Shown piece by piece: positions 26,789 through 32,365 of a stretch of DNA of 34,262 bases. The stretch is from a virus (Duplodnaviria > Heunggongvirae > Uroviricota > Caudoviricetes). The notes under the pieces were generated by a model. That model was not told the origin of the DNA. It worked only from the letters and a program-made list of their open reading frames with translations, and made no database searches. The stretch is taken from positions 244,967 through 279,228 of the IMG/VR virus record IMGVR_UViG_3300014208_000025; one strand, 5' to 3'. Position numbers and translations under genes: made by a program. Within the stretch, counting starts at the first letter, position 1. Each line of letters opens with the position of its first letter.

Positions 26789-27613
26789 ATGAAATTATTA
26801 AAGTTTAGTGACGGAAACAGCAAACTACCAAAGGGTATAACAACTTTTTCGTTGCCGGCATCCTACTCATGTCCGGGAGCAAACGAGTGTCGTTCTCAAG
26901 CAGTTAAGACAAGTGAAGGATTCAGAATTAAAGATGGTCCTAACTGTCAATTCCGTTGTTTCGCCGCCATTGACGAAGTTCTTAAACCGAACGTCAGAGA
27001 ACAACGATGGCACAATTTCAACCTTTTGAAAACGTGTAAATCCACAGTTGAAATGGTGGAATTGATCGTTAAATCGTTACCGGCATCGGCGTTCAATTTA
27101 CCCGTGAGATTACATGTCAGTGGAGATTTTTTCTCGCAAATGTATTTTGATGCGTGGTTGGAAGTTGCTCGAAAGTTTCCCCAACGTATCTTTTACGGTT
27201 ACAGTAAATCGTTATTGGTATGGGTGGCTCGTAAAGACAACATGCCTCCGAATTTCAAATTGGTGGCTAGTCGAGGCGGAAAATGGGATAACCTAATTGA
27301 GACTCATAAACTCAGATCGGCCAAGGTGGTTTACAGTGAAGCCGAAGCAATCTCTCTTGGTCTGTCAATAGACCATGACGATTCATATTGTTACAAGGGT
27401 ACTGACGATTTTGCCCTACTCCTTCACGGCACGCAACCAGCCGGCAGTGCATCGGCCAAAGCGTGGCAGGAGTTGAAGAAAATTGGCAAGGGCGGCTACC
27501 ACAATCAGAAACGGGGCCGGGGTTGGGGCGGCAAGGATTACGAGGGTCAACCCCTCAAAAAAAACTATGGTAGGGGTACCCCCTCCCCCAAGGGTATGAA
27601 AGTTCTCGCTTGA
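26789..27613 (+). CDS. GP88-family phage protein
   Basis: GNSKL..FSLPA..SCPGA..C..CFA and VRLHVSGDFFS..Y..W..FYGYSKS pattern. Confidence 0.75.
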   Translation: MKLLKFSDGNSKLPKGITTFSLPASYSCPGANECRSQAVKTSEGFRIKDGPNCQFRCFAAIDEVLKPNVREQRWHNFNLLKTCKSTVEMVELIVKSLPASAFNLPVRLHVSGDFFSQMYFDAWLEVARKFPQRIFYGYSKSLLVWVARKDNMPPNFKLVASRGGKWDNLIETHKLRSAKVVYSEAEAISLGLSIDHDDSYCYKGTDDFALLLHGTQPAGSASAKAWQELKKIGKGGYHNQKRGRGWGGKDYEGQPLKKNYGRGTPSPKGMKVLA

Positions 27614-27853: not shown

Positions 27854-28456
27854 ATGAGAACACTTGAAACGGTAAAGATTTGGTCGGGGGATGGCTTGGG
27901 TCAAGCCTCAGCCGTCACATTGACACAACTCAAACGTACGTCGGATGTGGCTTTATATCAACGTACTCAGAAAAGCGGTGCTTCGCAGGGGTATGAAGTC
28001 TTCATGGTCAAAGTCGTCGAGGCTGGTGCTCCCCTCCCTGGTGGGGGCGTGGTGGAGGAAAGTTACGAGCAATATCCAACGGCCAATCGTTTCGGAAGAA
28101 CGGCTTGGGCACCTGCGTCACTCGATCACGCAGAAAGAATTTACGAGAATCTGGTCAGAGGATTGAAACCTTGTGATGTGAGCGAGGCTGACGATGAAGA
28201 GGGCAACGAGACGCCCGAAATTCCTACGGTGCCAAGGGTGTCGGGTCAGCGTGGTCGCATCAAGAAAGAACTTCCTGTGTTGACTCTACCTGACAAGGAA
28301 TTCACCGTAGGTGAATTGGCCGAGGCAAACAAGGTGGAATATCCGATTGCCTATCAGTTCATCAAGGCGGCTCTTGAAATCAAAACGATCAAGTTTGTTC
28401 GGACCGAACGTCGCAATGCCAAGGGCAAGGAAAGTTCCATTTACTCAAAAATTTAA
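27854..28456 (+). CDS. two-domain protein with a C-terminal winged-HTH-like region
   Basis: FTVGELAEANKVEYPIAYQFIK...GKESSIYS; acidic linker. Confidence 0.65.
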   Translation: MRTLETVKIWSGDGLGQASAVTLTQLKRTSDVALYQRTQKSGASQGYEVFMVKVVEAGAPLPGGGVVEESYEQYPTANRFGRTAWAPASLDHAERIYENLVRGLKPCDVSEADDEEGNETPEIPTVPRVSGQRGRIKKELPVLTLPDKEFTVGELAEANKVEYPIAYQFIKAALEIKTIKFVRTERRNAKGKESSIYSKI

Positions 28457-28491
28457 TTTGACAATCGCAAACAATAGTGTAAGGTATCTCT

Positions 28492-28893: not shown

Positions 28894-28971
28894 ATTTAAG
28901 ATTTTTCTCACCTTTGTTCTGCCCAAACTAAATTAAGGGGTGGTACTCCCTCCCCATAGGGTCTAAACATT

Positions 28972-29199
28972 ATGAGCATGACCAAACAAGAAGCCAAAGA
29001 CAAGTTGAGACAGGCACAAGAATTGATTTTCGAAGTGGAGAAACAATTCATCGAAAGCGAATTTCCACGACTTCATGGCTACCGTGCTCGCATTGCGTTG
29101 GCCACCTTTCAAGACATCATCGGTTATAGTTTCTGGAACAAGGATGAACCTTTAATCGAAACAAAAGATTTGACAAATCAAAAACCTGTGGCATCTTAA
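28972..29199 (+). CDS. hypothetical protein
   Basis: 75-aa ORF. Confidence 0.6.
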   Translation: MSMTKQEAKDKLRQAQELIFEVEKQFIESEFPRLHGYRARIALATFQDIIGYSFWNKDEPLIETKDLTNQKPVAS

Positions 29200-29202
29200 T
29201 TT

Positions 29203-29358
29203 ATGAATCCCTACGGAGAATGTTGTATCTGTCATCAAGCCTTCAAAAAGTGGGATCGGAAACATCGTATTCAAATCATCAAATGTGGCGTCAGGTCAGA
29301 GGAAGAATACGATTACTGTTCGCAATGTTACTCCATTCACATTGAGAAAAACGATTGA
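29203..29358 (+). CDS. small Zn-finger protein (51 aa)
   Basis: CCIC..YCSQC; stop within the next TTGACA. Confidence 0.55.
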   Translation: MNPYGECCICHQAFKKWDRKHRIQIIKCGVRSEEEYDYCSQCYSIHIEKND

Positions 29359-29393
29359 CACTCCTTGGATGTTCTAATATACTTCCATACCCT

Positions 29394-29636
29394 ATGAAGA
29401 AAAATCTAACTCTCTTAATTGTGGCATTCACTTTGATTGCCGGAACTACCATTCGGGTTGACGCCAAACAGACTCCACGAGAACAACATCACGAACAACA
29501 TGACGACCGAGAGGATCAAGATGATCGTGACGGTAACTGTCATAGTATTCCTGACTCTGGGAGTACTCTCCCCCTACTGGGAGCGGGCTTCATTGGTTTA
29601 TTCTTCGTTCGTCGCAAGTTTCAAGTTGTCGGTTGA
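29394..29636 (+). CDS. minimal VPDSG-CTERM (PEP-CTERM-like exosortase substrate) protein
   Basis: Signal peptide MKKNLTLLIVAFTLIAG..VDA; charged linker; C-terminal IPDSGST, transmembrane helix and RRK. Confidence 0.8.
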   Translation: MKKNLTLLIVAFTLIAGTTIRVDAKQTPREQHHEQHDDREDQDDRDGNCHSIPDSGSTLPLLGAGFIGLFFVRRKFQVVG

Positions 29637-29667
29637 GGGATTCATTCTCCCTCCTTTCTGTTGGGTC

Positions 29668-29697
29668 AACGAGCATCCCGTTATTGGGGTGCTCGTT
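29668..29697 (+). terminator. intrinsic terminator closing the rightward array
   Basis: AACGAGCATCCC/GGGGTGCTCGTT stem followed by CCTTT. Confidence 0.65.
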
Positions 29698-29796
29698 CCT
29701 TTGCGTCTGGTGGGGGTGGTACTCCCTATGGAGGGGAGATGGTCATAATTATTTAGAGCGTTTTCAAATTATCAGATATATTTATAGTTCGCTCCT

Positions 29797-30501
29797 ATGA
29801 ATATGTTGATATCTAAAGACGAACTAAATAATCTTGAATCCAATGATTTAGTTCCATTTGAATGTGAAATTTGTAAGTCAACGTTTTACAAAAAGAAACA
29901 TTATGCTCTTAGAGGTCTAAAAGGAACTCGAAACTATTCTGCTTGTAGTAAAGAATGCTGGAAAAAAGTTATAGGTAATAGACATAGACACGAATGTATT
30001 ACATTAACATGTGATTGGTGTAAAAAAGAATTTCAACGTAAACCAAATCTTCACCTGAGACGAAAAAAAATGTTATCTCAACATTGTTTTTGTTCTCGAA
30101 AATGTTCTTATCTGTATAGACAATCCGACAATTCATTTGGTAAACGTTCCACATTAGAAAAATGGATTGAGCAAAAATTGACCGTTGATTTTCCTACCAT
30201 CAGCATCGAATATAATAACATTACAACAATCAATGGAGAATTAGATATTTTTATACCTACGTTGGATTTAGCATTTGAAATTAACGGCGTCGGTCATTAC
30301 AAACCGATATACGGAGTTGATAATTTCAAAAAAAGAATTAAAAAAGACGGAGAGAAAATTGAAGAATGTTTGGCAAGAAAAATTGACTTGTTTGTTATTG
30401 ATTGCAAAGAATTTAATACGCTCAAAGAGGATAGAGATATTAAATACTACAATCGAATTTGTGAAGAAATATCACGAAAATGGCGAGCGGTCTGCGGGTA
30501 A
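29797..30501 (+). CDS. Zn-finger plus PD-(D/E)xK/Vsr-like endonuclease, probable homing endonuclease
   Basis: Two CxxC..CS..C fingers; ELDIFIP..LAFEINGVGHY nuclease motif; AT-rich; adjacent to a tRNA-like gene. Confidence 0.75.
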   Translation: MNMLISKDELNNLESNDLVPFECEICKSTFYKKKHYALRGLKGTRNYSACSKECWKKVIGNRHRHECITLTCDWCKKEFQRKPNLHLRRKKMLSQHCFCSRKCSYLYRQSDNSFGKRSTLEKWIEQKLTVDFPTISIEYNNITTINGELDIFIPTLDLAFEINGVGHYKPIYGVDNFKKRIKKDGEKIEECLARKIDLFVIDCKEFNTLKEDRDIKYYNRICEEISRKWRAVCG

Positions 30502-30557: not shown

Positions 30558-30656
30558 ATCAATACATAGTCCCCATTTCTGGAAACCACTAACTTTAATT
30601 CGGTAAATCTGTAAGTGTTTTTGATAGGTTGTTTATATGTACAACCAGTCAAATCT

Positions 30657-31166
30657 ATGAATACATATTACACTGAAATCCAAAAATGTCAAGCGAAACA
30701 AAATAGAGAAATCTATTTTAATCGTGGTCGAACACAAGCCAAACAGAATGACCCTTTACATATCAAAGGATGTATGCTTTATTGGGCAGAAGGCACCAAA
30801 AGCAGAAACACTTTTGGATTTAGTAACTGTGAAGTAGAAACTCATAAACTGATGGTTTCTTTCTTAAAGCGATTCTTTGGCGACCACTTCCACAAACTTA
30901 AAGTGCGAGTCAATTTTTATCCATCAAAGACAAACTCATACGAATCTGTTCAGAAGTTTTGGTGTGACCAATTAGGAATCGAACTCCATCAGTTCAACAA
31001 ATATACTGACAGGTCAAAATACTACACGACACCAAAAGTCAACAAATATCCAAACGGGATTTTGTTATTACGATTAGGGTCGAATCAGGTGGTTCAACAT
31101 ATTTTTGGGGCCATTAACGAATATGTTGGAAGTGATTTGTATCATGTGGATTCATTTAGAAAATGA
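30657..31166 (+). CDS. LAGLIDADG-like putative homing endonuclease
   Basis: GCMLYWAEGTK..FGFSN..FLKR..FW pattern; lies between tRNA genes on the opposite strand. Confidence 0.6.
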   Translation: MNTYYTEIQKCQAKQNREIYFNRGRTQAKQNDPLHIKGCMLYWAEGTKSRNTFGFSNCEVETHKLMVSFLKRFFGDHFHKLKVRVNFYPSKTNSYESVQKFWCDQLGIELHQFNKYTDRSKYYTTPKVNKYPNGILLLRLGSNQVVQHIFGAINEYVGSDLYHVDSFRK

Positions 31167-31203: not shown

Positions 31204-31277
31204 TAACGGAGGCAGGATTTGAACCTGCGACCTCATGGTTATGAGCCATGCGAGCTACCAAACTGCTCCACCCCGTA
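31204..31277 (-). tRNA. tRNA-Met(CAT), initiator-like
   Basis: Cloverleaf with a U1xU72 mismatch, fMet-like D arm GGAGCAGTTTGGTAGCTC and loop CTCATAA; CCA not encoded. Confidence 0.9.
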
Positions 31278-32278: not shown

Positions 32279-32365
32279 TGGTGGGCTCACAGGGAATCGA
32301 ACCCCGATCTGTCGTTTATGAGACGACGGCTCTACATCTTGCGAATACCATTGAGCTATGAGCCC
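32279..32365 (-). tRNA. tRNA with CAT anticodon (Ile2-like) and an enlarged D-loop
   Basis: GGGCTCA/TGAGCCC-A-CCA acceptor; GTCGT-CTCATAA-ACGAC anticodon arm; canonical T arm; 20-nt D-loop. Confidence 0.85.

Follow-up and report, generated by a model that had tools for sequence, protein, structure and literature searches.

A giant phage encodes an 80-aa protein, P0001, that consists of a predicted signal peptide, a short hydrophilic stalk and a C-terminal sorting signal of the VPDSG-CTERM type. Judged by its profile matches, P0001 adds a new, phage-encoded member to a known family of sorting signals. By a narrow balance, and for the chain of events as a whole, we favour the reading that the phage gene is functional and specifies a minimal substrate of the exosortase type. 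On this reading, the gene was acquired, though not in the recent past, from tiny VPDSG-CTERM proteins that form a class in bacteria, and it has become part of the phage's own array of sigma-70-type, probably early, promoters. What is unusual is that a phage carries the protein; its miniature design is not.

Gene, protein and family assignment

The gene lies in the window, by which we mean the whole stretch of DNA analysed (34,262 nt). The window is the last 34 kb of the IMG/VR virus record IMGVR_UViG_3300014208_000025, which is linear, 279,228 bp long and 79% complete according to CheckV. All positions are those of the window, and the features of the VPDSG gene are as follows.

29355..29383, + strand: sigma-70-like promoter (-35 box TTGACA at 29355-29360, 17-nt spacer, -10 box TATACT at 29378-29383)
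29394..29636, + strand: coding sequence of the mini VPDSG-CTERM protein P0001, stop included (HMM matches; start conserved in homologues)
29394..29465, + strand: predicted Sec-type signal peptide, residues 1-24 (read from the sequence; conserved in P0003 and P0017)
29466..29546, + strand: cargo or stalk, residues 25-51 (27 hydrophilic residues, rich in Asp, His, Gln, Arg and Glu)
29547..29621, + strand: VPDSG-CTERM sorting domain (TIGR03778 on residues 53-75, PF18205 on residues 53-76)
29635..29697, + strand: two hairpins 3' of the stop codon, putative terminator (terminator-like site; fold statistics)

The coding region runs from an ATG at 29394 to 29633 on the + strand and is followed by a stop codon at 29634-29636. 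We took this ATG as the start because two homologues, P0003 and P0017, open with the same signal peptide (MKK..LLIVA.TLIAGTTI.V.A). A 93-aa frame beginning with TTG at 29355 was rejected, its start codon being merely the -35 box TTGACA read as a codon. The preliminary description had placed the feature at 29355-29697; the ORF does lie in this interval, but coding starts at 29394, 29355 being where the -35 box begins.

The same description had divided the 80-aa product into a signal peptide, about 27 residues rich in His, Asp, Glu and Arg, and the tail, and all of these parts were seen. By inspection, the signal peptide (GRAVY +1.03) comprises the n-region MKK, a hydrophobic core and a cleavage site at which VDA is followed by Lys. 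Residues 25-51 include 6 Asp, 4 His, 4 Gln, 3 Arg and 3 Glu; taken with Ile52, this stretch (residues 25-52) has a pI of 4.98, a charge of -4.9 and a GRAVY of -2.7. A single Cys-His stands directly before the motif. The tail begins with IPDSG (residues 52-56), in which Ile takes the place of the Val of VPDSG, continues with a hydrophobic helix of 16 residues (STLPLLGAGFIGLFFV, residues 57-72) and the basic cluster RRK (73-75), and closes with the five residues FQVVG (F76, then QVVG up to the stop). The ESM Atlas model of the protein has a mean pLDDT of 0.53. Two further ideas about the product were rejected: that P0001 is a lipoprotein, for which it lacks a lipobox, and that the Cys-His before the motif is an invariant defining feature, since P0017 has Arg instead of Cys.

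P0001 thus has the layout of a VPDSG-CTERM protein: it opens with a signal peptide, and the motif, the helix and the basic cluster lie at its very C-terminal end. That its tail is a VPDSG-CTERM signal had been proposed from the letters, and HMM searches, now run, placed it above the curated cut-offs of two libraries: TIGR03778 gave 31.3 bits (E 1.5e-7; cut-off 22) and PF18205 gave 32.3 bits (E 8.1e-8; cut-off 25). When all of the 279-kb record was scanned in six frames, the VPDSG tail occurred at one site only (34.1 bits), and none of 14 control genomes scanned in the same way gave a match above the cut-off. Regex and architecture scans of the phage record also found no second VPDSG tail. The canonical PEP-CTERM model TIGR02595 scored 14.4 bits on the protein and 16.2 bits in the six-frame scan (cut-off 16), and PF07589 scored 15.9 bits against a cut-off of 20.7. 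The motif itself is PDSG and not PEP (Pro-Glu-Pro). As neither generic PEP-CTERM model scores appreciably above its threshold, P0001 is properly assigned to the VPDSG variant, whose model, on these scores, fits it far better than canonical PEP-CTERM does.

The ORF is short and partly of low complexity, which could be read as the mark of a chance ORF or an assembly artefact. However, the HMM E-values of 1e-7 to 1e-8, full-length homologues at 58-64% identity and the presence of the identical protein in three data sources effectively refute such an origin, and we regard its probability as negligible.

Neither PF09721 nor TIGR04151 ('exosort_VPDSG') matched anything in the phage record (279 kb, 79% complete). 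The record thus carries no exosortase by these models, and any processing of P0001 would fall to the host, although an exosortase gene in the missing part of the phage genome is conceivable.

Carrier phage and expression signals

By its gene content, the carrier is a T4-like jumbo myovirus. The PHROG matches of its large ORFs are to tail sheath, portal, a family-B-like DNA polymerase, an SbcCD-like nuclease and ribonucleotide reductase. A protein identical to P0001 is recorded on a 351,720-bp contig (ENA) and on a 351,839-bp contig (JGI). The occurrence of copies on independently assembled contigs of about 351 kb indicates that the gene is a stable part of the phage, and the length of these contigs fits the completeness estimate of 79%. 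With a GC3 of 0.38 against a GC content of 0.40 for the phage genome, the VPDSG gene is, in composition, at home in the phage.

Several other features of the window were recorded. A phage tmRNA on the - strand (1424-1838) matched Rfam RF00023 over its full length with 122.9 bits, and ARAGORN predicted a tag of 31 residues ending in AEFAMA. Rfam also gave two tRNA genes on the - strand, at 31204-31277 (61.9 bits) and 32282-32365 (59.5 bits). ARAGORN called only the first of these (tRNA-Met, CAT), so that the second, of 84 nt, is atypical. An AT-rich ORF of 183 aa at 30615-31166 (+) had no family match. The 274-aa protein encoded at 26789-27613 (+) matched PF17338 (GP88, E 3.3e-39) and phrog_1392; its relatives in two IMG/VR contigs (L032 and L033), at 45-52% identity, are the nearest phage kin that we found for this genome region.

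The preliminary description had given the gene a promoter and a terminator of its own, and both stood up. The promoter, TTGACA-N17-TATACT, agrees with the consensus at 11/12 positions. The ATG follows 10 nt past the -10 box, which implies a very short mRNA leader, and it is preceded by no Shine-Dalgarno sequence. Beyond the coding region, the first hairpin (29635-29653) has 6 bp and is followed by CTTTCTGTTG; the second (29668-29697) has a strong 13-bp stem and a UUAU loop and is followed by CCUUUG, its U-tract being short. The region folds with an MFE of -44.5 kcal/mol (z -4.63), and 0/200 shuffled sequences folded as well. The two hairpins together are a probable transcription terminator.

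The promoter belongs to a larger set. TTGACW-N16/17-TANNNT sites number 60 in the window, against 1.8 expected, and span 9351-29383 on both strands; they run on the - strand as far as about 20.5 kb and on the + strand beyond about 20.7 kb, the VPDSG promoter being the last site of the + strand. Most of the sites stand 6 nt before an ATG, implying leaderless mRNAs. The sites make up a divergent array of tiny gene cassettes, probably of the early class. In T4, promoters of the host sigma-70 type before many tiny genes mark the early, host-takeover class, and by this analogy the VPDSG cassette, too, would be expressed early.

Immediately upstream of the VPDSG gene, a 51-aa ORF at 29203-29358 (+) has a zinc-ribbon-like pattern (CxxC...C and CxxC) and no family match, and before it a 75-aa ORF at 28972-29199 has a weak, sub-threshold PADLOC match to AbiEi (E 0.003). 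These two ORFs lack an array-type promoter and are therefore probably co-transcribed from the promoter at 28458-28485. Both ORFs, together with the VPDSG gene and its hairpins, are bracketed by an exact 15-nt direct repeat (GGGGTGGTACTCCCT) at 28937-28951 and 29713-29727, both copies being intergenic. One exact 15-mer pair in 34 kb is near chance (about 0.5 expected); allowing up to 3 mismatches gives 3 sites, where 0.42 would be expected. The repeat could represent cassette borders or a shared hairpin element. Directly downstream, the gene at 29797-30501 (+; GC 0.31, GC3 0.24) matched HNH/homing-endonuclease families of PHROG (best E 2.6e-10), the nearest neighbour of the VPDSG gene being this mobile element.

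We looked for the tail in other phages and in further collections. PF18205 had no match in eight distantly related phage records, which had been reached via the neighbouring gene at 27854-28456 (36-39% identity). The VPDSG gene is hence not kept across the wider lineage, and the phage may be able to do without it. Phage relatives found via neighbouring genes (L022-L030, L032 and L033) shared single genes only. As degenerate DNA patterns, H[NS][VI]P[DE]SGxTLPLLG had 0 matches in metagenome and viral (IMG/VR) contigs and P[DE]SGSTLPLLGAG had 0 matches in GTDB genomes. The single IMG/VR match (L031) to a broader pattern, VPDxGSTxxLLG, was in no open frame and was rejected as a chance match. By tblastn, nothing was found in 50,697 GenBank phage records or in PLSDB plasmids. 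A search with an alignment of three proteins in viral, metagenome and genome collections yielded no confirmed match among 530-600 candidate stretches, and these candidate lists were probably swamped by the signal-peptide pattern. In the literature searched, neither VPDSG-CTERM nor phage-encoded PEP-CTERM proteins were the subject of any paper.

The surroundings of the gene bear on the suggestion that P0001 is a neutral passenger from the host, perhaps carried along with the adjacent homing endonuclease and with no role in infection. The absence of the gene from the eight distant relatives, its position next to the HNH/homing endonuclease gene and the 15-nt repeat around its three-gene block are in keeping with such an origin. 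Against this, every element from the signal peptide through the motif and helix to the basic cluster is intact, the promoter and hairpin are of the phage type and GC3 is phage-like, and an identical copy is present on the independently assembled 351-kb contigs. We hold a neutral passenger to be very unlikely.

Relatives and the class of small VPDSG-CTERM proteins

An exhaustive HMMER search of 1.84 billion representatives of any length gave nine matches, from which P0005 and P0006 were discarded as compositional or repeat artefacts. The true relatives were nearly all equally small, as in the case of P0007 (80 aa), P0009 (94 aa) and P0010 (69 aa). P0003 (84 aa) was 58-64% identical to P0001 over the full length, P0004 (67 aa) had the ending RRKFQVVG in common with it, and the likeness of P0008 (206 aa) was confined to the acidic linker and the tail. 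In P0003 and P0017, the signal peptide was almost letter-for-letter that of P0001.

The nearest relatives (P0003, P0017, P0004 and P0036) keep the miniature layout, with the signal peptide or the tail conserved and the stalk variable. Within the closest group, the signal peptide and H-[NS]-[VI]-P-[DE]-S-G-x-T-L-P-L-L-G are conserved and the stalk varies by substitutions and indels. Conservation of the tag together with variability of the stalk points to selection on tag recognition rather than on the stalk.

This pattern has to be weighed against a simpler role, in which P0001 is a plain bitopic inner-membrane peptide whose tail serves as a stop-transfer anchor only, without any exosortase, and whose stalk works in the periplasm or at the inner membrane, much as T4 Imm or Sp do, or binds metal ions. 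A signal peptide, a C-terminal helix and RRK would give an N-out/C-in topology in any Gram-negative host, and the stalk, being rich in His, Asp and Cys, might bind Zn, Ni or Cu. The gene is also one of an array of small genes that are probably early, which recalls T4 imm and sp. However, H-[NS]-[VI]-P-[DE]-S-G-S-T-L-P-L-L-G is the best conserved part among the relatives, both length and sequence of the stalk vary, and there was no PHROG, PADLOC or PDB match to any exclusion protein. A role as a mere membrane peptide is in our judgement unlikely.

P0001 belongs to a recurrent class. A profile search restricted to 36-165 aa found 43 proteins, 37/43 with a precomputed PF18205 match, and several of them carry the JGI name 'VPDSG-CTERM motif'. 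More than 40 clusters of VPDSG-CTERM proteins of 51-150 aa have a low-complexity cargo of about 30 residues. We tabulated 54 motif-bearing proteins, made up of the profile matches, cluster members and proteins of 190-206 aa; their median length was about 80 aa, and the stretch between signal peptide and motif had a median of about 30 residues. Among the minis, the stalk was of the type (NGN)n, of the type (KDKY)n, a conserved AYFEWPHHQDSRQ block or, as in the phage protein, rich in His, Arg and Asp. In the ESM Atlas, a cluster of 67-aa VPDSG-CTERM proteins has 62 members and the label Bacteria, Verrucomicrobiota being the phylum of the one member for which it is known; a cluster of 72-aa VPDSG-CTERM proteins has 70 members, whose taxa are not recorded, and comparable mini PEP-CTERM clusters exist as well. 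The minis are apparently native to bacteria, an origin that rests on the Atlas label, with the phylum recorded for one member. We found no paper on tiny cargo-less exosortase substrates.

Set against this class, P0001 is accurately described as a sorting signal with almost no cargo, yet this is no peculiarity of the phage: the design is recurrent, and the phage copy lies at the median of the class. The preliminary description had also raised the possibility of a decaying fragment of a host gene. This was not borne out: both ends of P0001 are intact, its relatives are themselves minis, a search for longer proteins sharing words with the linker and tail found none, GC3 (0.38) is phage-like and the expression signals are of the phage type. 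The phage copy thus resembles the usual members of a natural substrate class rather than a purpose-built dummy.

These results also bear on the proposal that P0001 is a decoy or competitive inhibitor, produced early and in excess to occupy the exosortase C of the host, so that native VPDSG-CTERM proteins remain unsorted and the envelope or the EPS layer is disabled. The strong consensus promoter (11/12), the minimal cargo with its high-scoring tail and the lack of an exosortase of the phage's own would suit a decoy. However, the same minimal design is common in environmental sequences and in clusters labelled bacterial, so that a small cargo is no sign of a dummy, and the tail is a normal, cleavable-looking motif in which nothing suggests a dead-end inhibitor. 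The idea is weakened because it rested on an abnormally small cargo, yet minis of 51-150 aa are recurrent. The existence of the class removes the main argument for a purpose-built decoy, though some competition for the enzyme is conceivable. As an account of P0001, a decoy seems to us quite unlikely.

Proposed mechanism, significance and known systems

We conclude that P0001 is most likely a host-derived, early-expressed, surface-modifying moron, and we propose the following course of events. Soon after infection, the host RNA polymerase would transcribe the VPDSG cassette from its own promoter. The precursor would be exported by Sec and cut by signal peptidase I after VDA24. The C-terminal helix and RRK would then anchor P0001 in the inner membrane, its 27-residue stalk, acidic and rich in His, reaching into the periplasm. 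There, XrtC of the host (the VPDSG-specific exosortase, TIGR04151) may recognize IPDSG, cleave the protein and hand over a peptide of about 30 residues to the envelope, in the way expected for a native mini. This would alter the surface of the infected cell, the payoff being most plausibly superinfection exclusion, blocking of adsorption or prevention of the re-adsorption of progeny. Early timing, export, processing by XrtC, a host among the Verrucomicrobiota and the biological payoff are steps that we infer for P0001, and the remodelling of the surface in particular is pure inference by analogy.

A Verrucomicrobia host and processing by its exosortase C are plausible. The tag can reasonably be taken to point to the host phylum, as the preliminary description had proposed, because the family names, the pairing of TIGR03778 with TIGR04151 in NCBIfam and the Atlas label all fit. 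A bolder version of the mechanism would have a giant lytic phage flood a VPDSG-specific exosortase early in infection with a nearly cargo-less substrate, either coating the cell with a short acidic, His-rich peptide or starving native proteins of sorting, and so blocking superinfection or the loss of progeny. We consider this version conceivable but rather doubtful. If it were true, phages would for the first time be functionally connected with an exosortase system of any kind, and there would be a way into the role of mini CTERM proteins in bacteria.

Exosortase systems are widespread, and the fates and functions of their substrates are largely unexplained. A phage copy under a phage promoter implies that the mini peptide has an effect worth its cost during infection, and P0001 may be of use as a compact, portable probe for XrtC activity. 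As a host marker, the tag predicts an XrtC-bearing, double-membrane host, most likely of the Verrucomicrobiota, for an uncultured phage of about 350 kb; few phages of this phylum are known. The value of the finding is moderate, P0001 being an ordinary family member, and the interest lies in the phage context and in the unexplored class of cargo-less substrates.

The closest known system is that of VPDSG-CTERM and exosortase C (XrtC), a variant of PEP-CTERM/EpsH (Haft et al. 2006, PMC1569441). PEP-CTERM proteins in general have no recognizable domain besides the tag, and bacterial genomes that use the system encode many substrates together with the enzyme, with a median of 8 PEP-CTERM instances per genome (PMC1569441). 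P0001 shares with VPDSG-CTERM proteins the signal peptide, the C-terminal motif, the helix, the basic cluster and the lack of any other domain. It differs in that it is encoded by a virus, in a single copy and without an exosortase in the record (279 kb, 79% complete), and in having Ile for Val. A single tail with no paralogous expansion is expected for a captured gene. Compared with the metagenomic minis (P0003, P0017, P0004, P0036, P0010/P0011, P0024 and P0047), P0001 has the same plan and size; their stalks are of the (NGN)n, (KDKY)n or AYFEWPHHQDSRQ kinds, whereas that of the phage protein is rich in Asp, His and Gln and carries Cys-His.

Phages are known to modify the envelope of their hosts by small proteins. 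T5 Llp, Cor of phi80 and N15 and lambda Bor are envelope-modifying lipoproteins that depend on the host Lgt/Lol machinery, and T4 Imm and Sp are small early membrane proteins; several of these five mediate superinfection exclusion or receptor blocking. P0001 has no sequence similarity to them and uses another sorting signal, and in searches with it there were 0 matching families in PHROGs, 0 matches in PADLOC and 0 in the PDB. Like them, P0001 is small, predicted to be exported and directed to the membrane, and would need host machinery for its localization, a likeness that we regard as one of functional analogy.
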